Below, piece by piece: positions 5,547 through 51,832 of a stretch of DNA of 64,000 nucleotides. The DNA lies in the NCBI RefSeq assembly GCF_021028975.2, contig NC_059429.1, positions 111,290,001 to 111,354,000 of the forward strand, written 5' to 3'. Source of the DNA: Sphaerodactylus townsendi (Eukaryota). Positions within the stretch are counted from its first letter, which is position 1, and the number at the start of each line of letters is the position of its first letter. The notes beneath the pieces were generated by a model. It had not been told where the DNA came from and searched no databases. It was given only the letters and a program-made list of their open reading frames with translations. A program made the translations under genes and the position numbers.

Positions 5547-5729
5547 CTTCTGTGAGCTGAATGACTGGGTCCAGTGATATAAAACCAGCCTGTCCTTGGA
5601 TCGGAAAGCAGGGTGTGCCGGGTCCTGGATTTCCTCTGTCTCCATGGATTTGCCTGCTGCATCGTTCTCCAGGGCTGAAATGGGCCACCAGCTGCAGTTG
5701 GTGGGAGTAACATTGTTGGGAGTCGCCAT
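5547..5729 (-). CDS. GDAP1L1: GDAP1L1 coding exon 1 (61 codons); remaining exons not seen, presumably left of the window
   Basis: Translates MATPNNVTPTNCSWWPISALENDA...LVLYHWTQSFSSQK, matching the recalled GDAP1L1 N-terminus. Followed by a phase-0 donor AAG|GTAAAG. Synteny with OSER1 and JPH2 fits. Confidence 0.93.
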
Positions 5730-7199
5730 GACAGCCCGAGATTATGGAAGAGCAGGAGAAAGGAAGAGCTGCAGCTGCTGTACTATCGAAGCATCACATG
5801 GGCTCATGGAAACAGCATCCTTGCCGGAGCCGAAGGGCTCGAAATTCATTACTCACTCCGGATTGGCACAGGGAGCCCAAGGCAGCAGGATCAGAAGCAG
5901 CATCTGGTTTTGGAAGAGAAAACAGGAGTGTAGCTGGGTGTGTGCTACAGCACAACCTCTTTACAACCATGGCAAGGTTGCCACTGAGGCTGACTGCTGC
6001 ACTGCTCACGCGTTGTTCCAATCACAGACACAACAGAGAGTCCGTGCCACCTGACGACAAACCTGAGCATCCACACGCTGCCGGAGGTCTTGCAGCTTAT
6101 TGACAATATAGGACAGCCTTTCTTTGATCAGAATGGCTTCTGGCAAGATATGAATCCACATGTTGAAGTATTCCAATATCCAGATAGAGGGGACTGATGT
6201 TTACTGAGGTTAATTTTACTTCTACTGGCAGGCAGATCTGGGATTCTGATATAATTTTTCCCCCAATCAGAAAGTCCCGTTGTGCAAATGAGGAGATTCT
6301 TTGTTTAATCCCCGTGCATTTCTATCATTTTAAACCTGAGAGCATTTTCTGACCTTGACATTTTTTTAAAAATCACATTTCACTGAAGATAAGCTGTTCA
6401 GAAAGTAAGGAGAAATATGGGTCAAATTTATAGAGCCTCTCACTGGCTAGCAGCCATGACAACCAAATGGAACATCCACGTTCAGAAGTAGTATATCTTG
6501 GAGTATACCGGGGGGGGGGAGCAAGGGATGAATTCCACCTCAAGCCCCTGCTTTAAAACTTCCAATAGAAGCTGATACAGTGCTTTTACAGAGATGGGAT
6601 GTCCGAGATGGGATGGGGAGGCGGACACATGGAGAACAGTCTTAATGTCCAAACTCCTCTGCATAGACAACGAAACACTTGAAGGTTCATTGATTTATTC
6701 CTGCTAGAAAGAAAGAAGGCAGAAGACTGTTCTGAGTTCATCCCCTCAGAACAGTGATAATTTGGAACAGTATTCCCCCACCCCACATGTGAAGCAAAAC
6801 AGAGGAACTTTCACTGAAGCAACCCTCTAGACTGCCAAGGTTACATTGGCAGATAAGCACCTGCGAACAGCACAAAGCAATTCAGAGCATAGAGCAAACA
6901 GGCCCCATGGCAGCATCCCGACAGTCACTTATACATTGTTGTACTGCCTTGGGTGCTGTGGGACAGGTGTTTTACCCCTGCTTACCCTCAGCATCATTGT
7001 ATTTTCATGAACCTTCTGGGTTTTCCTACGTTTCCTTTCTCTAACCACCTTGCCGCAATGTATTGGTAAAGTTCACAACAAGGTGTTGATTGTCCCATCA
7101 ATGCCCTTTCCCCCTCAAACAGTGACCCCCAAGGGCTTAAGAAAGGCAATTAACACCTGATTATAGTGTTATATTTATAATAATGTGTTCATTGCTTGC

Positions 7200-11330: not shown

Positions 11331-14228
11331 ACATACAAGCAAATGTCTGGAAATAGCTGAAATGCAGAGGATAACTTGCAATCAACAAGCACTTACAAGC
11401 AGTCTGAACATGTGAGTAGACTCTACATATGTACAGACACATAGCATGGGGTATTGGGGACAGTGACATAATAAAATCAAAGAAAATTGGATTCAGATAG
11501 TGGCTCAGTCATGATACTTGCAGGGTAGCTTTGGGCCAATCAAGATCTCTCAACCTATCCTATCACACAGAGATCTTGCGAAGATAAAATGGAATTGTCC
11601 CATGAATACCATGTTGAGGTTTTTGAAGGAAAGAAGGGATCCGCACACAGTAAGTGAAGGGATTCTCACTCCAAAATACACATTCCTACTTAAAGTGTAG
11701 GGGATCCCAGCACAAATGCTCCTATATATATGTGTGTAAATGTGTGTGCAGCCTTCCGTTTTGTATATATACGTTATATATAAATACTTGCTATGTAGAA
11801 AGCAAATGCAAACAGTAGCAAAATGAGTTTTCCCACAAAAGGGGCATTTGAAAACATGCTCTGAAAACATTAATTTAATGCCAGCATTGGTTTTACTGAT
11901 CTGCAGCTGTGACCTGTGCATTTCGCTCCCCAACTCCAAAACCTTAATTTTTGCATTCTGATAAGAAATAACACAACCTGCATTTTTTCAGTATATTTAA
12001 AAATCGAATGTATTTCATCCTTCTGTTAAAGTGCCTGTCCTACACAGTAAGATATTTCACTTGAACAAACAGGCTGTACCAGGGATCATGGAACCAGCAT
12101 GAAAAAATAAACACCCACTAATGAAGGGGACTGCAATGAGGAGGGGAATTAAACAGGACCAGGAAAATCTGGTAGAATCCAACCCACAGATTTTCTCATC
12201 TCATAAGATTTACTTTTTTGGCACCCACTGGAAGGTTTAAGCTGCGAGTTCCCAACCTTTGAGAGCCTGCAAGCACATTTGGAATTTTAACACGTCATGG
12301 GCGTAGCACCAAAATGATAGCCACGGCTTAACTTCAGTAAGACAGTGCAGATCCTTGAGCTGTGATAGCAGCTGTTGCCTAAGCAACATTTCAAAAAATC
12401 TGCACAGCCAATCAAACCTTCAATAGTCAATGAGAAGCTACTTGGTGCTAACCCATTTTCTAAAAACACATGGTAGGCACCAGAAAGGGTGTGTGTGGGG
12501 TGTGTGTGTGTGTGTGTGCCATGGCATCCACGGGCATGAAATTCAGGGGGACGGCTCATTTAAGTTATGATAAACCCCTATACCGGGTGTTTTTTTTTCA
12601 GGCATTACTGCACTGAAGGCTTTTATTTAAATGGGCAGATTTGGAGCAAACGAAGAACTAGTGCGGAGACAAAAAACGGCTCTCATCACAGAACCTATAG
12701 CTCCATCTAGTGGATTATTTATTATACAATAAACATTGTAAGACTGATTTTAAAAGACCACTTCCACTGACCCATCCTGGATGATTGTACCTTTCTGCTG
12801 GTTATGTAGCAATCCCCAAGAAAAGGAATTTGACTAATTAACTAAAATACCAGAAGTTGATCTTACTGCCTTCTACTCTCGGTGCCGGCACTGACTTTTC
12901 TTGCCCTTGTAGTACCCTAAAATGGTGAAAAGAAAATTAATCTGTGGTAAGGGATTACACTCTGGAGACATTCTGTACCAAGGACATTAGAAAGCTTTGA
13001 AAAAAATCAAACCACAGTGAAGGGTTCATTTCCAGGGAAATGGAAATAGGTCAAGTGCTTATGCTTTGTTCAGTTTCCTTGTTACCTCTTAAAATAGGCT
13101 CTGTTACCATAGTTTCAAAGCGAACCCTGATCTTAAAGCAGCAAATCAACCCCACTGTCACGCAATGTATATTTTCCCTACATGCTTGAGCACAGGATGA
13201 GAACGTGTTTGTCAAAACTGTCAGATGATTTAACGTCCTTCGTGAAATGTGAGGAAGTTATCAAACACCTTTAAAGTGCAAGGAATTAGAAGCGAAATAG
13301 AGAAAGCGGGGGGAGGGGGCATATACACATTTATGGATTGACTGCAACATCAAGTGGTAACTTGAATGTGAGAATGAGGTATCGCAAGTTAAATGTGCAT
13401 GTCTTTTCAGTGAAGTAATTTCATAAATTCAGCTGGAAATCATCAAGAGATCAAGAGAACAACACTGCAACGTTCTCTTTTGCCAGTTCCCTCAAAACAG
13501 TATGAAATGCCGTGCTCTTGCGTGACCTCCATTCATTTCAATCTGGTTCGACTAGGACAACTTTCTTGCAGGACTGAATACAGAGTACTTGAGAAAGTCA
13601 TTCAAATGAACGTGAGAACCTGCCCAACTATTATTGTGTAGCTAGAACGGCACAGCTTTTTACACACAATTATTTTTCATTTTTTTCAGCTGCTTTTACC
13701 TTTAATCTTACTAAGCAGTGGCAAAATATGCCATACCTCATTTCAAATTTCCAAGTCCTATAAAAGGAAAATGGATCTCTCTTTTTCTCTCCCCACTTAG
13801 GCAGAAGATTGTTCCTGTTTGCTGGAGCCTGTAGTTGCTCCCGGGCATAGAAGCACTCAGCTCTCGGTAGATGTTTCTCCAGTCATTTCTGTGATTGAGC
13901 GATACCTATCTTCTATGTTCTATTTTCAACTCACAAACAAGATGATAAAATCTACTGCGTATACATTTATTTTACTTATAAAATCATTATGCTGCCACTA
14001 GAGGTAGTACCTGAACAAAATTCAGGATTATAACCACAAAACAAATTCCTAATTTAAAATTTAAGATTAACGATGCGATGCTATCTCCTTTCTAAAGCTC
14101 AGACAGATGTGAAAAGGGAAAGCAAGCTTAGAGTGCTTAAAGCCATGTGGCTTGCAAGATCCCACTGACAAAGCAGGCTAAACTTTGTGTGGCACGCACA
14201 GCTGCTCTTTTAACATGCTGCCAGCTAT

Positions 14229-15326: not shown

Positions 15327-16029
15327 TCAAGTGTACATCATCTCTGCCATGTGAGACATTTTCTTGGGAATATACAAATAATACTCCATGTACCCTGAAA
15401 GATCTTCAATAGTCACATCATCCACAAAGACGCGGGCTTGCTCAGAACACGACCGGGCAGAGCCTGATGAACACGTGCCAGAGGGTGACCTGTTTGGCAG
15501 CGACTGCGAACGCACCTCCAGGACGGCCTTTTCACATTCCGACAGGACGCTCCGCAAGCCAGAGAACGAATACGCCTCTATTGCCTGCCACGGTTTGCAC
15601 CGGCATTCCTTGTCCAGACAAGAGCACCGCTTCCCGTAACTCAGCTTGGATAACGCCTGGAAATCTGAAGGATGGCTGGGATCCAGGCCGGTCTCAAAGG
15701 CCAAAGAAAATGCAGAGCAGCTCTTTCTCAAATTCTCGGAAGGCTGCTCGCTCGTACAAGTGCTCCAGTGCTCTGCTCTGGGCCTTCTGCAGTTATTGCT
15801 GTCAAAAAGAGGACACCTCTTTCCTCCCAAATATGGCTCTTCTGTAATGCCAGGGTCTGGACTGAGTTTGCTCTTTGAAACATCCACCTGGTTTTTGTGT
15901 TTAAGCTGGTTACTGGTGGAAGATGCTTTCATGCTGCAGTATGTAAACTTGGGGGGATGCAGGACGGGGGATTTGGAACGCCTGCGGCGCTGCGGCCTCG
16001 TCATTCCTCTCAAGGGTTTCCTTGCGCAC
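15327..16029 (-). CDS. OSER1: OSER1 paralogue A, last coding exon
   Basis: Acceptor tctctcttcag|G. Encodes [28 protein letters not shown] and the OSER1 C-terminus [35 protein letters not shown]-stop. Confidence 0.95.
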
Positions 16030-16509: not shown

Positions 16510-16611
16510 CCATGCCAGGTCTCTCTTGAGCAGACGGTTTGATGCCTGGCTCCATCCACGGTTGCTCGGACAGGAGCTCTCAGGCCGGTACCTTCGCTCA
16601 TAGGTGTAGAC
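16510..16611 (-). CDS. OSER1: OSER1 paralogue A, middle coding exon (102 nt, phase 2/2)
   Basis: ttaacgtag|G...CATGG|gtaag. Encodes [34 protein letters not shown], similar to recalled OSER1 GEGTGVRAPVRTA...SKDSWHG. In frame with both neighbouring exons. Confidence 0.92.
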
Positions 16612-18420: not shown

Positions 18421-19090
18421 TCCAGGTTAGACTACTGTAACTCACTCTACACGGGCTTGTCTTTAGCCATGATCCGCAAATTAAAACTCATTCAGAATGC
18501 AGCAGCCAGGCTGCTTACGGCAGTTTGAGCAGGGATCGAATTACACCGATCCTATACCATCTGCACTGGCTGCCGATTGAGTTCCGGATTATGTTTAAAG
18601 TGTTGGTTTTGACCTTCAAAGCCGTTCGCGGTCTCAGACCTGCATACCTGAGGGACCGCCTCTCCTCATATTGCCCCGGTAGGCTCCTCTGCTCCTCGGA
18701 GGAGGACCTACTCGTGATCCCTGGCCCAAAAATGATCAGGCTGGCCTCTACGAGGGGCAGGGCCTTTTCAGCCCTGGCCCCTACCTGGTGGAACAGGCTC
18801 CCTCGGGAGATCAGGGCCCTGCGGGACTTACAGAGTTTTCGCAGGGCCTGCAAGACGGACCTGTTCTGCCAGGCGTTTGGCCAGCCTGATTAAAAATATA
18901 TCTACCATGTTATCTGGCCTCCCGTGGGCACAAAAGGGGGGAGGGGGTAGCCGGACGCCATCCACATTTTTAAATGAGTTCTGTTTTTATGTAACTGATA
19001 TTTAAATTATGTTTTAAGGTATGTTTTAACCTTGTTGTGAACCGCCCTGAGCCCTCAGGGGGAGGGTGGTATATAAAATAAATTAATAAA
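18421..19090 (+). mobile_element. L2-type LINE 3' fragment
   Basis: ORF ...ITPILYHLHWLPIEFRIMFKVLVLTFKA...RAFSALAPTWWNRLP. 3' end ttgtgaaccgccctgagccc with an AT-rich tail. Confidence 0.88.
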
Positions 19091-19320
19091 TTGTGGAATG
19101 CGCCTCCCGTTGAAAGACATTTATACGCATGTCTTTGGATGTACTTTTGGAGTTTAACAAGGCTGAACTGCTTTCTTCCTGGCCAGTTTTTGCACCCTGC
19201 TCATCCACATGGGAAAATGCCTACGTTGTTAACAAAAACACTTAACATGGTTTACATCTGAATAGGTTAGAATCCCAATAAAAAGATCACCAACAAGAAT
19301 AGTACAATAACCATGAGACA

Positions 19321-19435
19321 GCCACAGATGCAGGCGAAACATTAGGAACAAGATCTTCCAGGCCACGGCCACACAACCCGGAAAACCCACCACAACCAGT
19401 TGAATCCGGCCGTGAAAGCCTTCAACAACACATTC
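19321..19435 (+). mobile_element. 5'-truncated Penelope-like terminal repeat
   Basis: Same family as the 8.1 kb copy. 12-bp TSD AACCATGAGACA at 19309-19320 and 19436-19447. Confidence 0.8.
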
Positions 19436-19471
19436 AACCATGAGACAAATTCATGTGGCTTTAGTCACCTA

Positions 19472-19567
<96 letters not shown>

Positions 19568-20421
19568 CTACTTGACCTGCCATATAATGAATACTAACAA
19601 AAGAAAAATAAATTACAGTGAGATGAGTTGGAGAACATTACACAAATCCACTAAAATCCACCAAAGAAGCACCAGTGACAATACTACATTATTACTTGTA
19701 TTATTACATTTAGCTCAGATGCAGTTTGACTCATGTTGACACTGCATGTGAAAAGACATTTTACAAAAAACAGGCTGAGGTAATTTGGTAAGACAATCCG
19801 AGGTTTCATTTCTACCAACATCCATGTGACTGAGGGTACACATTTTCCTGCATGATTTCAAAACTTTTTTTGCCAATCACAAATGGAAATGGATATAAAT
19901 ATATGATGAGAATACATGGTAGCCTTTCATTTAGAGAAAATGCTATCCCATGGAATACTAAAGCTGAGATAGAGGCAATGGACAATATAGTATTTACTAA
20001 CGGCAAAAGTACATCTTTTCTTCCCCAATCGATCCTACACCACAACATTAACTGCAGTGGAGAAGGATCTGTTTAATAAATATTTTATTAAATATGCAAG
20101 CCAATAGCTAAAGCTACTATTTCATATTGGAACCAAGGCTGGAAAAACTGCAGATATCTAAACAACTCCTTGATGGAAACTACACACGTTAATTATTTTT
20201 TGAGCTCTGATCAGGATTCTTTACAGATAGGGAGGGAAAGAAGATATAGTGTCACGCATGGAAGCAAATATGACAAATGAACTATAAAATAGTACTATAA
20301 AATAATAAAAAATAGAAAGATCCTTCTCACTGAAATGTGCTGATAACTGACATTCAGGCCATTACAGTCCAGATAGGAAGGTCTGTTGTCATTCAAGGTC
20401 ACAGCTAAACAGACTGCCATG

Positions 20422-20648
20422 ATATTGTCGAAGGCTTTCATAGCCAGATTCAACTGATTGTAGTGGGTTTTCCGGGCTGCGTGGCTGTGGTCTGGTAGAT
20501 CTTGCTCCTAACGTTTCACCTGCATCTGTGACTGGCATCTTCAGAGGTGTACACCTCTGAAGATACCAGCCAAAGATACGAAGCGAAACTGGCCTCAGGA
20601 ACAAAGATCTGAACCAGCGACCACCACAACCCTAGGAAAACCTACCAT
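20422..20648 (-). mobile_element. Penelope-like inverted terminal repeats with hammerhead motif (20507-20547, minus)
   Basis: Palindrome centre tcttcagaggtgt|acacctctgaaga. 12-bp TSD CAGACTGCCATG at 20410-20421 and 20649-20660. Confidence 0.8.
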
Positions 20649-21829
20649 CAGACTGCCATGGGTTTTTCCTGCATTACATGGAAGCCATCCCACATAAATG
20701 TGACATACACATAAAAGACTTCATGTGATTATTTAATATGGAATAGGATTGCAGTCTATTCCATTGTTTACCGAACATACTCTCTTACTCTCATTGTCTT
20801 CCACTTTTATAATCCAATTTTTGTCATTATTTATTATATATCTTGTCAGATACCTTTTTTGTACTGTTTAATTTTTGTAATGCTATTCCTACTGCATCAT
20901 TTGTTGTCTGTCTTGTGCTATTTGACCGCATTATTTTACACTGTGTAATCCACCTAAGTCTCAGCGAGGAGGACAGGTTTTAAATAAAGTAGATAAATAA
21001 ATGATTGCTAACTTGTTTAGCAACAAAAGCATCATGTGATACAGTTCCTTATTTCATCAATAGGCTCCAACTAATATACTGAAATGTAACTTTGCACAGT
21101 AACACATACACGATGCTTTATCCAGCATTTTTCACAATGATAAACCCTCAATTAAATTATCAGTAGTAAATTTTCTTTAGTGGACACCAATGATGGCAAG
21201 ACTGTCACGTGGATATGAAGCAAGTAATCACTGTTCAGTCTAGAAGAAACTAAAATGTATAAGCATTGATAGGAAGAGACCCATGGCTCAGCAGTAGAGT
21301 ATCTGCTTAGCATGCCAAAGATTCTAGGTTCACACTGCTGACCCAGATAAGACCGCTAGTCTGACCAGTTTAGGACAGCTTCATGTCTTCATTGACAGGT
21401 TGGGATTCAAAAGATAAGCATTTTATGGTTGCAAAACACATGCAACAGCTCCAAGAAATAATAATGACAGCTGTTAAAATTTTGCAGCTGGACAATGCTA
21501 AAAGCTATAGTTACATTGTCTTAGCAGTGGAGCAAAGTCATCCAAGTTGGTTAGGGCATGCCTCCAACTGTTCAGGCAGGGCTATGCAAATTTTTTTGCT
21601 ATTCTCCTGGGCTGCAGTGGGGTGGCCTTTCCAGAATTACTGTAGCCTAGCTCCATCAATTTCTCTCTTCCTTTTCTGCACCTGTCACATTCTTTTTTTG
21701 GTGTTTTTTAATTCATTTTCATTTCTTTTTTTCCTTTTTTTGTAGGGGGTAGGAAGTGGATGACTTTGCCCCACTGAAAAGAAGACTGCCTCACCATTAG
21801 TCCAAGCTGTTTTTCTTTTTCAGTGGGGC

Positions 21830-22240
21830 CCTGTCATCCAGGCTGGTTATATACAAGAGCCTCTATATAAGGGTGGGACCAGTAAGAAAACCACTTGTGG
21901 CCAAAATTCTGCTCTTATGAATCCTACTGTACTACCTGTTGCAGGGCCCACCTTCTGATGGCCGCTTCAATTGAGCCCTGTGGGTCCAATCTGTAGAGTC
22001 TCACAAAGGCTGAAAAGGAGGACCAGGTGGCTGTTCTACATATTTCTCCAGAAGGAGCCCTGGCAGCAAATGAAGCAGATGCACCCGCTAATCTGGTCAA
22101 ATGGGACATGATGCCACTGAGAACGCTGAGTTTTGGACCGTGCAAGCTGTCCAAATACAGTCTAATTCATCTTGCTATGGCTGCTTTTAGAAGCCTTTTT
22201 TCCCCAAGCAGTTGTTTCCATAAAGCATGGGCAGGGGAGT
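21830..22240 (-). mobile_element. DIRS-like retrotransposon fragment (tyrosine recombinase C-terminus)
   Basis: SHLTRLAGASASFAARAPSGEICRTATWSSFSAFVRLYRLD matches the H-S-T-R...ICRAATWSS..TF.RHYRLD motif of DIRS1 recombinases. Confidence 0.75.
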
Positions 22241-24219
22241 CTGTAAGATGCAGATCCTGAGGAACAGATGTAAGATGCAGATCCTAAGATGGATTTTTGG
22301 GGAACAGCCAGCATCTCTGCAAATTCCTACCAATTTCCTCTGTATAAGCAATTATTGTTAATTTATACTAATAGTTTGATTGGTGGCTTTTGTAAATTTA
22401 CAACGGTGCCATTCTTAGCAATCCACAATTCAGTTGTGGGAATTGGCATCTTGCTGCTTATGATTGTCCTCAGTGTAATGGTAGTTCATGCCAGAACCGC
22501 ATTCTGATTGAAATGTCCACAGTACTCACTGATCAGGAACTTATACAAGCTCGAGTTCTAAGCCAAATATGAAGTTTATGGTGAATTCCAACTAAGGGGT
22601 GACAGAGAAAATAAAATGAATAAGAAGATTCCCCCCACCCCCACACACAAACTCATTCCCCTAATGTTCTATATTTTATCCTCCAAAGAGCTGATCCTGA
22701 GGCTATTTTGCTTAATGACTTATTCAACACAACAAAAAGGCCTTTTGTAAGTCTTTTCCTAGAGACCATTATGGGTAAATATTAGTTACTGTATTTTCCC
22801 CGCTAGGCAACCACCACTTTCTCTGAATTGCTAACTTTCCCCATCCCTTCTCATGCAACTATTTTGATTTTCTAAGAATTTAATTACTCATCAGTAGAAT
22901 AGACAAGCTGGGAAGAAGGCAATTAAAATTCAGTGGAAGTGTAAAATGTTTATATTGGTTGAACTACAAAGTAACTTTATGTTGTTCTTAACAATGCAGT
23001 TAGTTTTACCCTATGACAACAACCATTCTGCTTTTCAACAATTACACCTGGAGTCTTATACGAAATGAAACAATTCCATTCTGTTATATCCAGCACTATA
23101 AAGCAGGCCAACAAATGATTCAGAGTGCAAAACCAAAGAAGTTGTATGCTCTACAGCAAGTCAATACACTCCACATGTCAGACTTATCCAGTGTTTTCCA
23201 TTGGCACTACTTTTAAATACACAGTGTGTGTGCATGGCAGCCACAGGCTTCGATTCATCAGAGAACATCCGCAAATAGAGGGGAGTGCTCTCTTCTCTTG
23301 ATGTTCCTAGGGGGTTCTCTGTCCTCCAGGAATTCAGGAGCAAGAGAGGGAAACAAGGAAGTTTCCATTAACAGAGATCCCTTCTGTCCATGGGAAATCC
23401 TCTGGTGGACCCAAACCTATATCATAAAGAGATATGTAATTTATTAACATTTCAAATTAATGCTTTGGCCCCAAAAGTTTTAGAATTATGTTGTAATGCT
23501 ACAACGAGACATTCACTTGTTGAGCAGACTTACTGAAGTCCTCAGCAAATCAACATTTTTAAAAATTAGGATGTCAGACCACTGTAAGACAACTTTTGTC
23601 AAGACACACAAGGGTATCTTCTCAAGGAGAAGAACAGAACAAACACTAACACACGCATGCTTTTAATGCATTAGCAAGCAAATTGTGAAAAATGGTTGGG
23701 CAGTCCGAACTAAGGGGCGAGGGAGAAAATCTGCACACAAATATCCCACACTGATCATTTTGTTCCATTTTCAAAGGAAAGCACAGATCCTATACAGTTG
23801 CATTTAAGATCGAGGCCAACAGGTCTTTTCCTCAATCAAGCATACAGCTTGAAAGACGACAAAGAGCGGCAATGCTCTCTGACAAGGACCTTATGCAAGC
23901 TCGGGTTCGAAACCAAATATGCCGTTTATGCTGAATCTCTCCAGACAAAGAAAGCTCTACATACACGCGAAATGTTGAATGAAAGTAGACAACAGTCTCG
24001 GGCGTTTGGTGGAAGCTTTAGTCACCCCAGCCGTTAGCACACAGAATAAGGCAGGTGCAGCATGAGATATAGGAAGGGGGGAAGCATGGGAACCCTGACT
24101 CAGTGGCCAGTCCCCAAGGACCCTCTGCCTCAGGCAAAAAAGGCGGCTAAGAGAGTTGCCTGCAAAGGGGCCCGCTAAGTGAATCCCAATGGAAGAGCTC
24201 ATTCCCTCCCCCCAGACAG

Positions 24220-24760
24220 CCACTTTCCACCTCCGCCACCCAACAGACTAAGAAAGTATCCATCATCCGCAACGCGCCACTCACCAGCACACTCGCCACA
24301 GTCACTGTCGGAAGTGATCGAAAAAGCAACAACAGGAAGTGGCGACAACAGCCGCGCATGCCCAAATCGCAGAGGGAAGCTTCCCCGCGCGCATCTCGCC
24401 AATAGGGAGGAGAAGAGTGGGCTCGTCTCTCGTCCGGGAGGAGCGCATGCGCATTGAGGCCAACCTTCCGTCATTCGCCAGATCTGGGCTCGCGTTCTGG
24501 TACTCTCGCTCGCAGGGTCGCTTCTACATCCGGGTCGTTGGCTGTCGCTTCTCAGGCGGGAGGACGGCGGCGTTCGAGGTTTTCCCTAGGCTGCTTCACT
24601 GACTCGAGTACGTTGGTCCTCTTAATCAACCGTCGCTGGCGCTTGCTGGTCTCTTCCAAACCGAAAAGGGCTCAGCGCAGCGGTGCTTGTTTCTCTTGAG
24701 TCACAACTTCGGGCGTTGAAGCCTCCGTGTTTAGAAGATTCTTCCTTAGTGCTGAGTCTC
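24220..24760. promoter_or_regulatory. CpG-island, probably bidirectional promoter between the two OSER1 copies
   Basis: Dense CpG. NRF1 palindrome GCGCATGCGC at 24443-24452, ETS/GABP CGGAAGTG at 24309-24316 and CAGGAAGTG at 24333-24341, CCAAT at 24399-24403. Minus-strand donor CTG|GTGAGT at 24285/24284 fits a non-coding exon 1 of copy A. Confidence 0.8.
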
Positions 24761-24792
24761 TGGTAAAACGGATTAGGGAGTCCTTTTGCGGG

Positions 24793-25007
24793 TTCTTTAA
24801 CAGGTGGAGACTCAACAGGTAGAGAGGATTCTTTAACAGGTGGAAACTCAACAGGTAGAGAGGATTTGTTAACAGATGGAGACTCAACAGGTAGAGAGGA
24901 TTCTTTAACAGGTGGAGACTCAACAGGTAGAGAGGATTTGTTAACAGATGGAGACTCAACAGGTAGAGAGGATTCTTTAACAGGTGAAGACTCAACAGGT
25001 AGAGAGA
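24793..25007. repeat. 36-bp minisatellite, 6 copies
   Basis: Unit TTCTTTAACAGGTGGAGACTCAACAGGTAGAGAGGA starting at 24793, 24829, 24865, 24901, 24937 and 24973. No spacers. Confidence 0.95.
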
Positions 25008-26339
25008 CCTGTGTTTTAATATCGGCTCCTCTTGACGCGTGGTCACCGGGGGTCGGGGCTGAATTTAGGTCAGATTTAAGCATGACGCTATCGGACAAGC
25101 ACCTCGTCGGTGACCTGGCGTTTCCTAAGGTCTGGCCTACCCATTCAGCAGAACGAGATGTCGAATTAGTGATGCAAAAATTAGTTTGCTGAGAATGGGA
25201 AGTGTGTTTGTTATTTAAACCTTGAATCGATTATGCAGGAATAATAATAAGAGTATTAATTTGTTGTTGATTAAGTAACTGCTTATTAGATACTTAGTGC
25301 TGTTTTGGAATTAAAGGTTAGAAGCTATTGAATTATAAACTATGCAGAGTTCTGTCTGAATGATATTAGTACTGTAACTTTAAGATCCAGTGTGTTAGAG
25401 TTAATATATGTATAGTCAATGGGATTCTGTATTTTCTTTTTTCTCTTTCTATATTTTCTTATCTATTTTTGAATTATATTTCAGAAAACTAAGAAAAATA
25501 TTATTAAAAAGAACTAGTAAGCGATGCTTATTCAGCTTGCCTTTCTATTTTGAAGGCTTCTCTGTGTTAGAGAAGGGAAAATCCCCTGTCAGTTGAAAAC
25601 TACAAACAAATCTAGGCCATTCCAGGTAAAGGGTTTAGTTCTGCCTGCTCTGTGGCTTCTGCTCGTGGAGGCTTGCTTAGTGGAAGGGTGTGTTCAGAAA
25701 ATGCGATTCCCTCGTGCAGTGAGGGGTATTACAATGCACTGTCTCAGCGCTCTGTCACTTCATGCTGTGTTTGTACACAGGGTTTAATATGCATTGCTTC
25801 ACATAGCAGCTGAGTAGTCTGCTTAAATCAGGTGCTGGCAATGTGCTGCATCACATGTGTGCATTTTACTTGCCCAGTGGTGACACATTTATATCAGTTC
25901 TGAGCTTGGAAGATATGAGATGAGTCATCTTCATCTGGCTTCCGGTCTAGAATTCCCTGCCTCAAAAGGCTCATCAGAATCATAAAATCATAAAATCATA
26001 GCGTTGGAAGGGGCCATACAGGCCAATGCAGGATCAGCCTAGAAACTACCTCATGCCTGATCTCTGGCGGATTTATTAAAATATGTTATGGAAGTGTATT
26101 TTAATGCTTCAATTTGTAATGCAGGTTTTATGTTGCTGCTTACATATTTATATGCTGACTTTTATTCTAGCTATTTTAGTTTTGTTCAGGGTTACTGCTG
26201 GCCGTTCACTTAAATTGCTTTCTTTAGGTCTATTTATGCTTTTATTTCTTGTTCGTATTGAAAGCCGCCTTGAGAATTACAATAAAAATATGGGACAAAG
26301 TTACTAAATAGGTGAAGTGTTACTCGTTGCTGTGTCCCC

Positions 26340-26870
26340 ATCACAGAAAAAAATAAAGTAAAAATAAAAGAATTCAATAGAAACAACCAGGGAGAAGGGC
26401 CAATAATAGGTATTGGGTATGCCAAACAAAAAAGTCTTCACCTGTTAGCAGAAGACAATGATATCAGAAGACAAAACTAATCTATCTGGAGAAGAATTTT
26501 CAAAGTTTTGGTGCCATGAACGAGAGGGCCCTTTCTGAGATCACCAACGTGTGTAGCTTCAGATGGTGGGAGCACCTGAAGCAGTGCCTTTGATGATGAT
26601 TGGAATGAACAGGTAGGTTCATACTGGAGAAGATGGTCCTCAAGTTATACTGGCCACAAGTATTGCAAGGTTTTAAAGCTCAATATGAGCCCCTTGAATT
26701 GGGCCCAGAAGCAAGTTGGTAGCCAGGATACACCGAGAGAGGTTGAAGCGATACGGTACCTATGACCCATTCCAGTCAGCATTCTGGCTGCAGCATTCTG
26801 TACCAAATGTAACTTCCAGACAGTCCGCAAGAGTAGCCCTACATAGGGCACATTGTGGCAATTTAATTTA
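26340..26870 (-). mobile_element. Degenerate L2-type LINE 3' fragment
   Basis: ORF YVGLLLRTVWKLHLVQNAAARMLTG...WLP...FKGLILSFK. Confidence 0.75.
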
Positions 26871-27447
26871 GAGGTACCAGAATATGCACCAGCTCATGGC
26901 TTCATTCAGGAATCACTGAAGTTCACCAGTCGGCACTCATTCCATTAACTCACTCAAGAATGGTACATTTGAAACTGGATGGTAGCCAACACTTGTGGGT
27001 TTAGAGTAGATTTCTATCAGAGGGAATGGATCACTTTCTTCTTTAAGGCAGGTCGACCACCTCCTCTCTCAAGGAGACATTTACTGCCTCCTGGACCCAG
27101 TCTGCAAGCTCCCTAGCAGATTTAAGCAAGCAGTTGGGAGGTCTCAGGTTTCCAAGAACTCTGTCCACATCCTCACATTGTATAAGCTGAAAGGTGTCCC
27201 ACACAACTGGACACATTGGTACCCGGGGACTATCCTATCCTGTCAGTATTAATGTAGAATCCAAGGCAGAGGATGGGAGAGACTTCATTCGGAAAGGGCT
27301 TAGCAAAATAATTGCAGTGGTCTGCAGAGAATTCCTCCTGCTCTATGCTGAACCCAGTAGGTCCGGATCCACCCAGAAGGGTTCTGCAGGTCTACACTGT
27401 TAGATACCTAATGAGATAGTTCACAATACAAACTCCACATCTTAAGA

Positions 27448-27583
27448 CAGTGGTGGTGAACCTTTGGCACTCCCAATGTTATGGACTACAATTCCCATCA
27501 GCCCTTCCAGCACGGCCAATTGGCAGGGGCTGATGGGAATTGTAGTCCATAACATCTGGAGTGCCAAAGATTCGCCCCCATGG
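27448..27583. mobile_element. Hairpin hAT MITE
   Basis: Palindromic, 8-bp TSD TCTTAAGA, core related to 9007-9141. Confidence 0.8.
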
Positions 27584-29870
27584 TCTTAAGATGTACCGTG
27601 GACAGAGATAGGGGACTCAGGCCGATAAAGCCAAGCCCCCTCCCAAACACAAAAAGAGATCAGTAGAGAGTCATGGTTTGCCTGTTGTATGTTTGGAAGT
27701 TCAAACTACAATTTGGATTATGAACTATTGTTGAGGCGTTATCCAAATTGAGGCAAACCACAGCAATGAGAGAAGGAATTATATCTGGAGGAGTCTTTCA
27801 AGAAGACAGAAATTCCTTTTCTACAACCAGTGCTGCAGACGTGCCCAGTACTAAAGCAAGAGGTAGCTGCAGAGTGCTGCACTGCATGCTGTCTCAGCCT
27901 GTTCTGCCATTCCTAGTTCTTGCATGATGTTACAAAGAGATATGCTGTATTTGCATTATGAAAAATAATGTACAATAAAGTAGCCTGCCTTCAAGTTTTT
28001 TACTTGTAAATTCAATATTAATTTTCTGTAAAGGCAGACCGTTCTCATGTACCTGCAATCATCCATTTGCTTGGTAGGTGACTAGCACAGGAAGCTGTTG
28101 TAGGCACAGGAAGCTGTTGTAGGCACACGCCGCTTCCTTTTGGGTTTTCGTCGGTGCCTGATTCAACACCTGGTGTATACACCAAGCACATTGTGACACA
28201 TCGATCCTTCTAGATGTGTCATAATGACATCCAACAAGCAAGGCAAGTAAGAAACCTACCTGATTAAATCATGCCAGAGCCAACAAACATCACCTGAGAG
28301 GAGCAGGGAGGGAGGTGCATCCAAGTGAGCACCGTTCTAGTAGTTTTTCTACTCTCTCTTTTCCTTGTCAACTTGAGCTCTGAAGGCTGGGAAAATCGGC
28401 TTTCCTTGTTGGTGTACAATTCAGCATAGGAAGGTCAAACTATTCTTACTCTTTGAAAGTTGTAATAGCTGTTTTCAGTAGAGCAGTACAGACATGCTTA
28501 TAGGGGGATAATTCAGGACAAAGCAGTTTTATTTTTATCTTATTTTTATTTTATTCTTTGATCTATATCCCGCCCTCCCCCGTAGGGCTCAGGGCGGCAG
28601 GCAACAACTGTCATAAACAACAAAATATCAACAATTATGCCACTATGTGTGTATGGAAGTTTGAGGCATAATTACTCTTGAAGTAAGTCTGCTTGCAGTC
28701 AGTGAGACTCTAGAATCATGAATGCTTTCTTGAGAATAAGGCCTGTTGAATTTGATGTGGTTTATAATATAACTATCATGTTGCAAGTCTGGGCTTTTAG
28801 CATAGCCTTCTGGTTGGTTTGCTGGTATTCTGTGCAGAGGGATGGCGTATTTATTATTGTATAGAGGAGCATTCAATCATGAGGGGACCCCATATAAAGT
28901 CAGAATGGGGAAAATATTGACAAGCTAGGGCAGTATAGGCTTTCAATGTATAGGCTTTCATGGCACTTAGGCTTTCAATGTTTCCACCTGAATAACATTG
29001 GTTGCATGCTCTGTGTACTTTTTCTCAAAAGTCAGTCATATTGAATTTAGTGGGGTTTGATTCAGAATAAACATGCCAGATTGAATTTTTGGGGAAACTG
29101 TAGCCTCAGACATTTAGAGCTTGGTAGAAAACGCCTCGGATATCAAAATTACTTAAAGGTCCCCAATAGACTGTTTGTTATACAACTTAAATTTTGGGGT
29201 AAGGAAGGGGTGAAATCCTGATAGATGAAACCAATAAGCTGTTGAGAGCCAGCATGATGCATTGGTTAAGAGCAGGGACTTGTGTTTGATTCCCTACTCC
29301 TCTACATGAAGCCTCTGGGTGAGCTTGGGCCAGTCAGTTCTTTCAGAACTCTTTCAGCCCTACCTGCCTTACAAGGCGTCATATGATTGTAAGCCACTTT
29401 GAGGTAGAGAAAAGCAGTACATCATAGAAAACTGGTAGGGACACTGGTCTGTGCTGTTAGTAGGAGATTGTTATGTTTCATGAGTCACGTGTGTGGAAAT
29501 TAACAAGTTGCGTGCAGACTGGCTTTTCCAGAATGAATTTAGTAATGATGAAGCAGCCCTTGTGTGAAGTTTGTCCTAGATGTACCTTTCTTCCATTTGC
29601 TGTTGCTTCTTGTCTTGTAATCCTTCATATAGCTTCATTCTTTCCAAAAGAAGTGGAACTGCTTATTATATTATTTGGATGTTCCACACAGAATTGCTGT
29701 TAGCTTTTTGACTTTCTGATACATCTCCAGATAATGTTTCAGCTTGGGCACTTTCACCAGTGAAATATCAAATGAAGTCATACCTATTCAGGTGTGTCTG
29801 TGTTATTTTCATGTGCTTATATTCTCTCTTCAGCCTGCAGAGAGGGAGAGCAGTGGATTGTGCTCCAGAA

Positions 29871-29932
29871 ATGTCGGAGATTGAGGAGAACCTTCAAGCA
29901 GCTTTCAAAAAGCTAAGAGTGGATGCAGAGGG
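29871..29932 (+). CDS. OSER1: OSER1 paralogue B, first coding exon
   Basis: Encodes [21 protein letters not shown], donor GG|gtaagc. Pyrimidine-rich acceptor ctctcttcag ends at 29833. Confidence 0.9.
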
Positions 29933-29987
29933 GTAAGCAACAACGCAGTGAAATTTAGCATTTGTGTGATTTTTTAAAAATTACATA

Positions 29988-30309
29988 CCGTGTTTCCCCG
30001 AAAATAAGCCCTATCATGATTTTTCAGGATTTTTGGAGGATGCTTTAAATATAAGCCCTCCTCCAGAAATAAGCCCTACCGGTAGTTACAGTTCAGGATG
30101 GTGTGATCCAGCAGGGTTCTCCCTGCCAATGAGGATGTGGCTTGCATCACATGTGACGGGGAAGCAATGGGGCTGCTGAGAGCCCGCCTTAATGAATTGT
30201 GAAGGTACCATATTTCCCCTAAAATAAGCCCTACCCTGAAAATAGTCCTAATGCATCTTTTGGTGCAAAAATTAATATAAGACCCTGTCTCATTTTCGGG
30301 GAAACACGG
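29988..30309. mobile_element. Tc1/mariner (Tigger-like) MITE
   Basis: TIR CCGTGTTTCCCCGAAAAT / ATTTTCGGGGAAACACGG flanked by TA on both sides. Confidence 0.85.
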
Positions 30310-34222: not shown

Positions 34223-34333
34223 GTCCACTGCTACACTGTCTGTGAGCGAGTCGACATCTCTGAGACCGCCTGTAAGACCTACAGATGAAACCAAACAGAA
34301 GAACATGAATGCATCTAAAGAGAGCTGGCACTG
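34223..34333 (+). CDS. OSER1: OSER1 paralogue B, middle coding exon (111 nt, phase 2/2)
   Basis: ccccatttcag|G...CACTG|gtaagg. Encodes STATLSVSESTSLRPPVRPTDETKQKNMNASKESWH. Confidence 0.92.
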
Positions 34334-37186: not shown

Positions 37187-37853
37187 TTGTTTGAGGAAGC
37201 CCTTGAGAGGAACTGTGAGAACACGGCGGCGGCGGTCAAAGTCCCCAATACTCCATCCCCCCAAGTTCATCCACTGCAGTGTCCAGACGTCTTCCTACAG
37301 CCAGCCAGCGTCCAAGAGTTCCACCAGCTCCTCTGAAAGTAGCCCTAGCCCAGATATGCCAGCTCCAAAGATTGAACAAGCCCATCATCTTCTCAGTGAC
37401 GTTGATCCCGGGGAGAATGGTGGTGAGCCACCGGAAGCACGTGCCGTAGAAACTCTGAAGAACAAAACTGAAGGTGGTGCTGTTTCTCTTCCCACTGCCA
37501 TTCTAAAAGCCACAGATCTTGCTGACTTTCAGTCCCTCTCTGAGCAACATAAAGGCGGTATCTGCGCATGCACAAACAAGCACTGCCAGTGTCAGGAATG
37601 GCAGGACATGAAAGTCTACAAGTTTTCTGACCTACAGAACTCTCTTCCATCAACGCCCGAAAGAACAACACGTGTACAGAACAATTCCCAGGTTCTTCTT
37701 TCAAGAACTCCTTCCTGCTCTCCTAGGTCTTGTTCTGAGCAAGCCAGGGCTAATGTGGATGATGTGACTATTGAAGACCTTTCAGGGTACATGGAGTATT
37801 TCCTACATATCCCTAAAAAAATGTCCCACATGGCAGAAATGATGTACACATGA
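37187..37853 (+). CDS. OSER1: OSER1 paralogue B, last coding exon
   Basis: Acceptor cactttttag|T. Encodes [32 protein letters not shown] and [32 protein letters not shown]-stop. Exons sum to 62+111+667 = 840 nt (279 aa plus stop). Confidence 0.95.
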
Positions 37854-42779: not shown

Positions 42780-43003
42780 TTTGCATAGCAATTTCCACCC
42801 AAACACTTACTGATTAGTTCCCCACCCTGGGACATGGACAATATATACCCCACTAACATTTCCTTCTCACTGGACACAGTGTGTAACAGACGTCTCTCAG
42901 TGATACACCTCTGAAGATGCCAGCCACAGATGCAGGCGAAACGTTAGGAACAAAATCCACCAGACCACGGCCACACAGCCCGGAAAACCCGCCAGAACCG
43001 GTT
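42780..43003 (+). mobile_element. Penelope-like 3' region/terminal repeat with hammerhead motif (42908-42948)
   Basis: CCT-CTGAAGA-TGCC...GGC-GAAACGTT-AGG followed by the family tail. Left boundary uncertain. Confidence 0.75.
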
Positions 43004-43249
43004 CTTCGATGGCTTGCTTTCTTGAGAGAAGTATTTCAGATCAGAACAGACTGCCCCTGCTTTCAGAGAATTACAGGTGCTTTCCAAGGGAAGGAAATGC
43101 CCCACCTCAGAAAAGCGGCCTTTCAGGACCGATCGACCCCCCCACACCCTTGCACATTATTCTCTCTCTCTCTCTCTCTCTCCCCCCCCCCCCCCCCCTC
43201 CGCTTCTGTGGCCGTGAGCACAACTTTTCTCTTTCTTTCCAAACGGCAC

Positions 43250-43660
43250 CAGGCGAAGATCGCGCCGGACGCTTCTGGGCGTGCTATTTTTAAAAGCTGC
43301 TCTTGCTTTCTGCGCCTGCCCTCCTCCTTGGTTTCTTGGTCCCAGTCCAAAAGTGTCTGTGTGTGTGCATGGGCCGCGGGGGGGGGGGGGGGGGCGAGCC
43401 CCCCATAAAAGGGGCCTGGAAAAGGGGCCGGGCTCTGGGAGTTTATTTTAGGAGCAGCCTTGGGGATCCGATGGCCTTGTTAGGGCAGAGTTGACCTTTC
43501 TGCCGGAGGCGGTGGAGGGAAGAGGGCAGGGGGGGCTGCAGGCGAGAGCCGCAGAAGCGTGGAGCTGATGGGACGCTAAAGAAGGGCGGCACAGCCGGGG
43601 GGCCTCCGGGAGCAGCCTGGGAGGGCGCGCGGGAGAAGGCAGGAGGGGTGGGGGCTTCAA
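43250..43660 (+). promoter_or_regulatory. JPH2 GC-rich promoter region with MEF2 site and CArG box
   Basis: CTATTTTTAA (MEF2 consensus YTA(W)4TAR) at 43284-43293 and CCATAAAAGG (CC(A/T)6GG) at 43403-43412, in CpG/GC-rich sequence upstream of the JPH2 ATG. Confidence 0.7.
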
Positions 43661-44156
43661 GACCCACAGCTCTTCCTTGCACCCCCTCCTAGGCTCTGAA
43701 AGGGGCCGGCTGCCATCCCGTCCAGTGGGGCCCTGCAAGGAGGCTGCAGGGATGTGCAACCGGGTCCCCAGCAGTTGAGCATCCCCCCCCCCCTTTGCCC
43801 GGGGCATGGTTTGGCGGAAGGGATGTGGGCTCGAGTGGCTTGCAGCTGAGAGGGACCTTCTTCGCCCGCGTCTCCAGCCTGCCCCCAAAAGCCAGTTCGG
43901 AGTCTTGCCCATGCCTCCTCATCCAACAGGTTAGCCTCACTCTGCAGGTCGCCCTCGCTCTGCATCCCTGCAGGCAGCACCCTTGCCTTTTCTTACCTCC
44001 TCTTGTGAGGACGCAGCACTTTGTTCTGGAGCCAGCTTGGAGAGCCCCCTCGACGATGCCAGTAGCCACACATTCTGCTTTTGCCTAATGGCAAGGCCAC
44101 CTGGCTAGAATAGAAAGGAACGGGCCCCAAAAAGAGAGAAGAGTGGACATTTGTGA

Positions 44157-44612
<456 letters not shown>

Positions 44613-47532: not shown

Positions 47533-50026
47533 TTCTAGCAGATGTACTGTTCCCTGTGGCAATATTATATTCTAACTTGGATCTTCCAGTACTGATGGGA
47601 TTTGAATTTGTTTATTTTTGCAAGCTGTTTTGGCTCTGGTGTGCTGCAATAAAGTAATAGGAACCCTGGCAAATTTGATTCTTAGAGGGTTAGAGTTTTC
47701 TTTGTAGTGGCAAATGGCCATTTGGATTGCATTTCATCTTGTCTCATTTTTGCATGGTACATTTATTAAAGTTTTCCAATGTATCAATACAACTGCCTAA
47801 TTAAATTCTTAATCAAGCAATGGCTGGGTGATTTGTTGAGAAAAATATTGATCAGATGATTGCGCTAAACAGGTCTCCTCTATTATAGAACATAGGAGCA
47901 GTTGTGCTGGATCAGGTCAGTTTCTTGTTTCATACAGTGATCACCCAAATATTCCCTGGAACGCCTGCAAATAAGGCACAGAATTAAAAGCCCTCCTTAG
48001 ATGTTGCCTCCTCCCCCCCCCATCAGTTTACTGCCCCAGATATGGAGGTTCCATCTAGTCATTGTAGTCAATAGCTAGTGATGGATCTGCCCTTTATGAA
48101 TTTGTCTAAATGCCCCACCGTGCTTTGGTGTGGGTATTATAAAACAAATCTTCATTCCTTGTGGCTTGCAGTAGTTCAGTCTGTTAAATGAAAGCATCCT
48201 AACTCTACTCCTGCTTCCCGGTTACATAGCGCCATGGACAAGCTGTTGTGTTGCCCAACAGCCATTTTGAATTTGCTTTTCATGGGCAGAGTAGGTCTTT
48301 TTCATCTCCCTTTGTTATCGGAACTGTAAATGTATACACCAGACAATATTGTGTAACACTCAGAATAACATGGTTTGAATAGAGGGAAATCTGGAGCAAA
48401 CTTGAGTTGTCCTAAGTTGCATTGTCTTTAAAACCAGCATTGAGCTCCATAGTGGGGTTTACTGTCTTTGCTTGTGAAGAGGAACAAGTGAACCAGATTG
48501 GCAATTTGGCCTTTTGTTAATCAGTGAAGTGGCACAGAAATCTTTCTGTAATGGCAAACTTCCCTACAACTTTTTCAATTTGCTTAATCTTGTTGATTCA
48601 GATGTTTCGTATCATATATCACACTATAGCCAAGCACTCAGTTCCTCTGACTGAACAGCATCTATGTTTTTGGAAGAGGAGGCTATGATTTATGCTAATC
48701 CTGCTCCTCCACTGCAGTTCCTCTCTTTGCTCCAATATTGTTCTTATGGGAGGGGGGTCTGGTGACTCTCAGAAAGAAAACTTTGGAGGCTGTATAGGCT
48801 GCTGCAAGAGGGCAAAGTTGGAAACTCCTCCTCTGTGAAATCTGTGGTTGGGAGCCACTGAACACTTACAGTACAGTATATTAGGGTTTATTTTATTATA
48901 TACTGTGTAGGTTATTTTCTTATGAGATGTGTCTGCAAAAAGGGATACCCTTCCCCTTTTTTACATCTGTCTTCCATTTAGAGGATCTTATTTTTCTTTC
49001 TCCCCTCCCTCCTTCAAGTGTTGTGTTCTGTATTGGTCTCTGAGAGATTTCTCTAGAATAATTAATACTCTTGGGAATTTCCTAATGATGAAGTGATTCA
49101 TTAAGTTGACAGTTAAGTGTTTCAGCCTCGGAGATCTCTGTTGATATTTTTGATTTCCTTCTCATGGGAATGTGGTTTTTTCATTTAGAGGAAAGCAATT
49201 CTAGTACATAGGAATAATTATCTGCCTGATGATATGCACATTTGAGAAGTACATTTCAGCAATATATATTTTAATGACTAGCAAAAAATAGATACTGCTC
49301 AGGGCTGTCCTAACGCATGGGAATATTAGGGAGTTGCCTGGGGGCCCCATGAGCATAGGGGCCCCATGCTAATCTATATATGTGATGACTTGCTGTCAAT
49401 AAATAAATATGATACTATACTAAAATATAAATATTTGTCATTGGAAGATGCATATTTAGCATGCGTTTTACTAAAGATAATGAACAGTACTAAGGTTAAT
49501 CTTTAACATAACAAGTGGACATTGGCAGTCACCTCTAATTTAGTATCATGGTCATCTCTGCAACCACGCGTGCATGTACGTGTACGTATCTCATGCACTG
49601 CTTTGCCCAGGGGCCTATAATGCTGTTAAGATGGCCCTAATACTGTTACATATTATGGTTGAAATAGCTTTCCCATCTAGTGGGAATTTCACTATATTAT
49701 ATCTCAGACTTGCAGTACAATCACAAACAGAGTTATACCCTTCTAAATCCACTGAGGTCTGTGAGCTTAGAAGAGTGTAACTTTTTAATATTGCACTGAC
49801 AGTGTATGAATGTATTTTAGTAGATTTGTCAGCTGTGGCTTGGGAATTTCCTGGAGATTTGGTGGCAGCATTTGGGGAGGGTGGAATTTGTGACAATCAG
49901 CAGGGCTGGGATGACACAGAATCTACCCTCTGAAGCTATCATTTTGTTCCAGGGGAACTGATGACTGAACACTGGAAACCAGTTGTAATTTCAGTACTCC
50001 AGTACTGGAGTCTGGCAACCCTAGTT

Positions 50027-51832
50027 CAGTGATGGCGAACCTTTTCAAGACCAAGTGCCCAAACTGCAACCCAAAACCCACTTATTTATCGCAAAGTGGT
50101 CCACCCACTCTTAAAAAGACCATCGTTAGATCCGGGTGATCTGGCCAATTACCGCCCCGTTTCGAATCTTTCGTTTCTGGGGAAGGTAATTGAGAGAGTG
50201 GTGTTGGAGCAGCTTCAAGGTTTTCTGGATGACGCGCTCGGCTTTTCGACCCCTTCCAGTCGATCCGGCTTCCGTGCTGGGCATGGGGCTGAGAACTGTT
50301 CTCGTCGCTGTCACAGATACGCTTACGTTAATACAGCATGACCCGAGGTAGTTGGTTACAGCTGCACAAGGTATTGCTTGATCTTACAGCAGCGTTCGAT
50401 GTGGTGCGATCACGACCTTTTGACCCACCGAACCTGGCTGTCTCTGGAGTCGCGGGGGCACTGTCCTTCAATGATAAGTATGCGATACCGTTTCTCGGGG
50501 GGTCCGGACTCAGCCAAAGTGAGATTATTATTAGGGATCAGGCCTCCCGGAAGTGCACCCGCTGTTCATTCTGCGGTGTACCCCAGGGGCATTGCTATCC
50601 CAGCTATTATTTAATATCTATATGCCCTTGACCCCTTGCTCCAGCTGCAAATTACGGAGTTTTGGGCTAGCACTTGTCATCGAGTATGAGGATGACGCGC
50701 AGCTCATTCTGTTGATGGATGGAGAGGAGCAGTCACACTTCCCTCTTGGCTCTACAGGCATTGTGCTGGAAGGCGGTTGCTGGTTGGTTGCGACAGAGCA
50801 AGTTAAAACTGAATCCTATCGAAGGCGGAGATCCTTTGGCTTGGCCAGCGAGTAAAGGATTTTTCCAGCCGCCCGGTGTGGGAGGAGATCACATTAGGCG
50901 CCGACCCCCCTCCGTTCGCAACCTGGGGAGTCCACCTGGATTACGTCTCTTTCAGTGGAGAACCCGGTGGCCCATATAACCCGGGTTGCTTTTTTCCACC
51001 TTCGTCAGGCCAGGCGGTTGGCTCCCATTCCTCCCAAAGCGGACCCCTAGCCACAGTGGTCCATGCAGCGGTCACCTCCAGAGCTGGACTAGTATTGCTA
51101 ACTTCACAAGCTCTCGCGAGGCAGCTTCCCTTGCGTCTACAGTTCGGAGAGACTAAGAAACTGAGGGTCCAACATGCGGTACGGCACGGTTTGCTTACAA
51201 GGCAGCGCCATTTACAGGGAACACATCCAATACGCTTTGTGCTGCGCCAGCTGCATTGGCTCCCCAGTAGAGTTCGAATCATTTTCAAAGGTGTTGGATG
51301 CTTTTGACCTTTAAGGCCTTACGTGAGCTTGGGACCCTCATTACCTGCATGAGGACTGCGCATCACCCCATATGTCCCTACGGCCCTCTCCGGCTCGGCT
51401 GAGGCCAATCTTTTGGTGGTCCCTGGCCCCTCAATGATGCGACTGGCATCCACACGGGCCAGGGCGCTTCTGACTCTGGCCCCGGCCTCTGGTGGAACAC
51501 TCTTCCACCAGCCATCCGAGACCCCTCTTAAGGGACAGCAGGGGAGTTCCGCCCAGGGCCTGTAAAATGGAACTGTTCATGAGGGCCTTTGGAGAGGACC
51601 AAAGGCCGCTGAAGGTGCCTTTTAGCTCTTAACACCTGGAGTCCTTCCTGTCTAATGGGACTCCACCATTCCCACTCCCCTCTTAGGGGAGGATTTAAAA
51701 TTAGGGTATTTGGACGCCTCTTATTTTTCTACTGCTGTTTTTAAAGGTTTTAACCATATTTATTTGTACTGAGATTCATGTTGTACACCGCCCAGAGCCC
51801 CTTGGGATGGGGCGGTATAAAAGTTTAATTAA

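Follow-up and report, generated by a model that had tools for sequence, protein, structure and literature searches.

Two OSER1 genes lie head to head on opposite strands of a 64,000-nucleotide stretch of Sphaerodactylus townsendi DNA (the window). OSER1-A, on the minus strand, comprises exon 2 at 19473..19593 (ATG at 19549, acceptor at 19593 or 19556), exon 3 at 16510..16611 and exon 4, whose coding part, with the DUF776 domain, occupies 15327..16029. OSER1-B, on the plus strand, has exon 2 at 29834..29932 (ATG at 29871), exon 3 at 34223..34333 and the coding part of exon 4, again with DUF776, at 37187..37853. The spliced coding sequences (minus 19549-19473, 16611-16510 and 16029-15327 for A; plus 29871-29932, 34223-34333 and 37187-37853 for B) yield exactly the RefSeq proteins XP_048354891/2 (P0219) and XP_048354649/51 (P0121), which confirms both start codons. 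The proteins are 47% identical (141/302 columns), their open reading frames are intact, and both resemble OSER1/C20orf111 (PMC11336091) in exceeding the Pfam cut-off for DUF776 (PF05604; 62 and 90 bits, against 25) and in terminating in the invariant C-terminal segment. Intron positions are common to A and B, which indicates duplication at the DNA level and rules out a retrocopy origin. A search of the S. townsendi genome with B exon 4 returned two matches, A and B, and no third copy was found with this query. Paroedura picta has a third, A-derived 'low quality' copy (P0216) on another chromosome-scale contig, possibly a retrocopy. Over 19300-30100, four DNA-like runs (three samples, one from a second organism) give long contig pieces covering most of the interval, none spanning all of it; these runs behave as genomic DNA, with even intron coverage and no splice joint among the joints listed, and the pieces argue against an assembly artefact.

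The pair is flanked on one side by the first coding exon of a GDAP1-family gene (5547..5903, minus strand, ATG at 5729), whose following exon is found 10 kb before the window begins and which we take, from synteny, to be GDAP1L1. On the other side the anchor is the first coding exon of JPH2 (44166..44612, plus strand). The gecko order is thus GDAP1-family(-), A(-), CpG island, B(+), JPH2(+). The human order is JPH2(-), OSER1(-), OSER1-DT(+), GDAP1L1(+), which places B in the position of human OSER1, and A in the position and orientation of OSER1-DT relative to the anchors. The original prediction had A sitting where human has a divergent lncRNA, and the gecko order fits this.

Squamate A models include an internal donor in the last exon that leads to a conserved 50-nt alternative downstream exon (12867..12916, minus strand), so that the invariant C-terminus is replaced; the C-terminal tails of Paroedura, Salvator and Podarcis map there by tblastn, and those of the Lacerta and Vipera models look similar. 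Two Paroedura A models run on into 5797-5903 (minus strand), the 5' part of the GDAP1-family first coding exon, which serves as their acceptor exon; as modelled, read-through from OSER1-A to GDAP1L1, starting at the island, is possible in Paroedura. CpG-rich stretches at 50000-51400 and 18440-19000 have open frames similar to fragments of LINE reverse transcriptase and are not promoter candidates for A or B.

In a 200-bp scan, the CpG island extends over 24121-24834 (714 bp; GC 0.56, CpG observed/expected 0.89), and the interval 24220-24760 within it has GC 0.58 and observed/expected 1.03. The one further island call between the ATGs is a weak 287-bp continuation at 24921-25207 (GC 0.48). Measured from about 24450, the A ATG is 4.9 kb away and the B ATG 5.4 kb. 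The scan therefore bears out the claim that this is the sole CpG-island promoter candidate between the start codons at 19549 and 29871, roughly 5 kb from either.

Motif content was evaluated against 5000 dinucleotide shuffles of 24220-24760. The NRF1-type palindrome GCGCATGCGC (24443..24452) is present as a single copy in the 64-kb window (P = 0.0016), and two ETS/GABP-type sites, CGGAAGTG at 24309 and AGGAAGTG at 24334 (24309..24341, plus strand; GGAAGTG cores starting at 24310 and 24335), are also above chance (P = 0.003-0.005). Additional to those in the original prediction are a second NRF1-like site, GCGCATGC (24354..24361, plus strand), and an ETS-like CGGATGT (24526..24532, minus strand). 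The elements that the prediction had listed (NRF1 palindrome, two GGAAGTG sites, CCAAT box and minus-strand GTGAGT) are all present, but the CCAAT box (24399..24403, plus strand; P = 0.41) and the GTGAGT hexamer at 24284 (P = 0.25) occur at chance level. The island contains neither a GC box nor a YY1 consensus, 23-26 kb is free of FOXO consensus sites, and polyA signals and U1 sites flanking the island follow no clear asymmetric pattern. Human divergent gene pairs show an excess of NRF-1, CCAAT, YY1, Sp1 and GABP motifs (PMC2077898), in agreement with the enrichment of NRF1, GABP and CCAAT-type motifs in bidirectional promoters that had been invoked for this locus. Like human divergent CpG-island promoters, the gecko island lies between opposite-strand genes and carries NRF1 and ETS sites above chance; it differs from them in that its two genes are mutual paralogues, its two-way activity is predicted, and GC box and YY1 consensus are absent (PMC2077898). 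As a promoter, the island is an unremarkable example of a familiar class.

Both A- and B-type proteins are found in lizards, snakes, tuatara, turtles and birds. Crocodilians have A-type and no B-type proteins among the matches listed (three lists of the best 120), which may reflect either loss of B or ranking. By hand count, A and B are on contigs of the same length in 43 species (26 squamates, 2 turtles and 15 birds). Bird contigs bearing both types are as short as 17.9 kb (17,935 bp, mousebird), 30.5 kb and 46.2 kb, and in the bee-eater A and B are on two small contigs. Among squamates, A evolves more slowly than B (gecko-anole identity 81%, versus 61% for B), and in birds the two rates are about equal, or B is the slower.

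Phylogenetic analysis was carried out on 57 proteins hand-picked from about 300 (18 A, 17 B, 10 mammals, 9 amphibians and 3 fishes). A is recovered as a single clade (100/99), and B clusters with every mammal in the set, monotremes included (100/99). An A+B clade, as expected from a duplication confined to reptiles, is rejected (AU p = 0.0034), as is A+mammals (AU p = 0.0035). With the diagnostic blocks removed, B+mammals retains an SH-aLRT of 96, and the rejection of A+B becomes borderline (p = 0.047). Derived consensus columns number 5 for B+mammals and 0 for both A+B and A+mammals. The SECE motif is carried by 126/129 A-class, 18/22 amphibian-class and 18/22 fish-class proteins, versus 0/151 B-class and 0/68 mammal-class proteins, with classes assigned by best BLAST hit and counts inflated by near-identical isoforms. 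Mammalian OSER1 is thus a B-type paralogue without the SECE motif of fish, amphibians and A. No named mammal is found among the A-type matches listed (annotated proteins; best 120 of about 630 per search). A divergent mammalian A was also sought among 50%-cluster representatives, and the most A-like of the 10 checked were chicken, bee-eater and ptarmigan.

The grouping of B with mammals and the rejection of A+B suggest that the duplication took place before the mammal-sauropsid split and that A was subsequently lost in mammals. On the tree, the AU tests and the consensus columns, A appears as a coding gene of non-mammals that is ancestral to that split. We consider it very probable from the protein sequences that the duplication is this old, that mammals lost A and that mammalian OSER1 is the derived copy. 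An inverted tandem duplication of at least exons 2-4 would have left a copy on either side of a single island; exon 1 may have been copied with them, or new divergent activity may have been captured in the process. Any inverted symmetry left in the island is at the level of shuffled sequence (score 22, versus a shuffle mean of 23.7; P = 0.73), and non-coding similarity between A and B consists of interspersed repeats only.

Copy A appears degenerate in the pheasant family. One chicken A model (LOC770857 isoform X4, P0386) is without the conserved C-terminus, the ptarmigan A models (P0384/P0497) are repetitive with internal deletions, and guineafowl A (P0059) is whole but divergent. A may be undergoing parallel decay in pheasant-family birds, and this degeneracy is a possible reason for the paralogue having escaped screens based on chicken.

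The human lncRNA OSER1-AS1 maps to chr20:42839726-42854667, plus strand (PMC8177763). In Table S4 of Hezroni 2017, XLOC_043069 (chr20:42839570-42855166) is paired with one lizard gene lost in mammals, given by the identifier ENSACAT00000016797 only; the row is anchored by FITM2 and OSER1 and rests on synteny, with sequence similarity of 0 and lizard as the only species (PMC5577775). ENSACAT00000016797 is a candidate for copy A. The OSER1 locus is not discussed in the main text of Hezroni 2017 as searched, and the origin of OSER1-DT is partly foreshadowed by this one synteny-only row of its supplement (PMC5577775). To this row the phylogeny adds a particular lost gene, one whose location and direction fit. 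Several lncRNAs are known from genes that lost coding potential (XIST/LNX3, JPX/USPL and LOC102606465/LOC768855), and OSER1-A and OSER1-DT resemble them in that a sauropsid coding gene is apparently missing in mammals and a lncRNA is found in the same place and orientation (PMC5577775). A precedent in arrangement is the DPH5-divergent lncRNA LOC102606465, derived from the lost LOC768855, which like OSER1-DT is a divergent partner at a common promoter (PMC5577775). The present case differs from these in that the lost OSER1-A would be a paralogue of its promoter partner, and the link to OSER1-DT is based on synteny, with similarity of 0 (PMC5577775).

Since the tree places the duplication before the split, the human lncRNA more likely arose later, as a relic of A. 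Its exons (116 nt at +3.96 kb, others at +6.4 kb, a long one at +8.9 kb, and more at +12.8 and +13.9 kb) loosely parallel those of gecko A (121 nt at +4.8 kb, +7.8 kb, a long one at +8.4 kb and an extra at +11.5 kb), a likeness that is suggestive only, because many isoforms make such matches easy. We hold it somewhat likelier than an even chance that OSER1-DT is a relic of the A transcription unit. A weaker but substantial possibility is that A was lost after the ancient duplication and OSER1-DT was newly built from unrelated exons at a still-bidirectional promoter, so that only the direction of the promoter survives. The zero sequence similarity speaks for such a new transcript, as does the frequent use of new exons or transposons by lncRNAs at lost-gene loci (PMC5577775); the loosely parallel exon layout is a suggestive point on the other side. 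Among human pairs of lncRNA and lost gene in synteny, 241 were found, 53 above chance, so that most are expected by chance (PMC5577775).

The duplication, taken as older than the mammal-sauropsid split, would have occurred on the amniote or the tetrapod stem. In the free tree A falls outside amphibians as well (94/89, a node that is not starred), yet a clade of A+B+mammals is compatible with the data (AU p = 0.155), which leaves both stems in play. A tetrapod-stem duplication with independent loss of A in amphibians draws on the free-tree position of A outside amphibians+B+mammals (SH-aLRT 92) and on 4 columns in its favour versus 2 for the amniote grouping. However, it needs two losses, amphibians retain SECE as A does, and the amniote-stem alternative is not rejected; we regard the older date as rather unlikely.

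Turning to the use of the island, the strand skew (T over A plus G over C) is negative to its left and positive to its right, with a cumulative minimum at 24402. The sign flip between the ATGs is significant (P = 0.00075; P = 0.004-0.005 with island and repeats masked), and the bootstrap 5-95% range of the change point is 22.2-25.5 kb. Across 84 kb, the two strongest skew switches are at the island and in a GC-rich stretch upstream of JPH2 (42800-43700, switch at 43266), which is likely the JPH2 promoter; between B and JPH2, the intergenic DNA also has negative skew (-0.026). As a switch is also seen at the unidirectional JPH2 promoter, skew marks a promoter and is no proof of two directions.

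Gene models of other species provide further evidence, their RefSeq 5' extensions being gene-model output. Exon 1 of the Paroedura picta RefSeq B model matches 24350..24590 on the plus strand (tblastn E = 1e-11); the N-terminal extension of P0131/P0228 aligns to 24350-24583 and then to B exon 2 at 29832-29873. The reading AHA(H/Q) of the NRF1 site recurs in the 5' extensions of Paroedura, Podarcis, Python and Liasis B models, and IRV, the plus-frame reading of 24526-24532, also occurs in those of Paroedura and Podarcis; none of the Podarcis, Python and Liasis extensions mapped to the gecko island by sequence. A models of galliforms and swans/geese have GC-rich-looking 5' extensions, and no A-type extension showed a sequence match to the gecko island.

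On the A side, the minus-strand donor CTG/GTGAGT (24279..24287, intron from 24284) is the predicted end of a non-coding exon 1. As a 9-mer, scored with a rough matrix, it is the top minus donor in 23.5-24.8 kb and ranks 2/524 among minus GT sites between the ATGs. On the B side, the candidates for the exon 1 donor are 24763 and the repeated sites of a minisatellite (36 bp x 5.9; 24793..25006, plus strand), where one or more ends of B exon 1 may lie. Each unit of the minisatellite bears moderate donor-like sites of the CAG/GTAGAG and CAG/GTGGAG types (scores 4.9-7.4). At about 24590, the counterpart of the likely Paroedura B donor, the gecko has GC instead of GT; given the donor-like sites in each unit, the length of the B 5' UTR might vary with the repeat unit.

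The original prediction that one island drives both copies thus gains indirect support from its being the only island, its motif enrichment, the skew switch at 24402 and the models of other species that start there. The island very probably is a bidirectional promoter common to A and B, as predicted. NRF1 and GABP-type factors would hold the unmethylated island open, and polymerase would initiate in both directions near 24.4-24.5 kb. On this model, A has a short non-coding exon 1 that stops at the 24284 donor and is joined to 19593/19556. Exon 1 of B would extend from about 24.35-24.5 kb as far as a donor located at 24.6 kb or beyond, with 29834 as the acceptor. Separate promoters, with one copy on the island and the other mainly on a non-CpG promoter within the 5-kb interval, for example at about 28.2 kb for B, are improbable. 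The GenBank-derived S. townsendi B model (P0215) does have a different upstream exon, at 28224, and several strong donors are present in both introns of the inter-ATG interval. However, island-type first exons occur in the B models from Paroedura, Podarcis, Python and Liasis, the island itself contains a strong minus donor, and the skew is already directional on either side of it. The short upstream coding exon of P0215 (28224-28246, plus strand) adjoins a good donor at 28247 and may be a prediction artefact.

A reptile-only duplication, in which an inverted copy beside the OSER1 promoter captured an existing lncRNA-type transcript whose human form is OSER1-DT, would account for A occupying the OSER1-DT position and for the lack of mammalian A among the matches listed, and such islands often show divergent transcription (PMC2077898), but it is very improbable, as it conflicts with the AU rejection of A+B (borderline without the diagnostic blocks), with the derived columns and with the lack of SECE common to B and mammals, and demands that mammals and B gained an identical motif in parallel. 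The OSER1 protein is indeed subject to convergence, as seen from a 6-residue deletion common to B and therian mammals and absent in monotremes. The original prediction had read the human locus in the sense of such a capture of pre-existing lncRNA-type divergent activity by the duplicate; with the tree dating the duplication before the mammal-sauropsid split, that reading is left unsupported.

Taken together, the gecko has two intact OSER1 paralogues head to head around one NRF1/ETS-rich, likely bidirectional island. It is likely that the pair arose by inverted tandem duplication before the split, and that mammals lost A and kept its transcription as OSER1-DT. From the sequence evidence we infer the start sites, factor binding and co-expression, and the descent of OSER1-DT from A. 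To the joint reading we give an even chance: OSER1-DT/OSER1-AS1 would be the fossil of a second OSER1, the amniote ancestor having had a one-promoter pair that is still present in reptiles and birds, mammals having kept the derived copy while the ancestral-type copy became a lncRNA, and pheasant-family birds independently undergoing decay now.

Databases carry the pan-sauropsid OSER1 pair under the name 'OSER1-like', and a literature search, covering sources other than subscription journals, returned no paper describing it. The case is one of hidden paralogy with mammalian loss, combined with a candidate gene-fossil lncRNA, both of which are known kinds. OSER1, a target of FOXO, is reported to lengthen life and to increase resistance to oxidative stress (PMC11336091); the tree of that paper includes no reptile or bird, and 'duplicat' and 'bird' are absent from its main text. 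If the present reading is true, human OSER1 would be a derived B paralogue without SECE and not a simple 1:1 orthologue of the sauropsid genes, which would matter for carrying OSER1 function across species. Expression of two copies from one promoter in reptiles and birds would raise a question of dosage for long-lived, stress-resistant lineages. OSER1-DT, a human lncRNA studied in cancer, would gain a concrete origin, and living states of one promoter could be seen side by side: before the loss in lizards and turtles, possibly during decay in chicken and ptarmigan, and after it in mammals.
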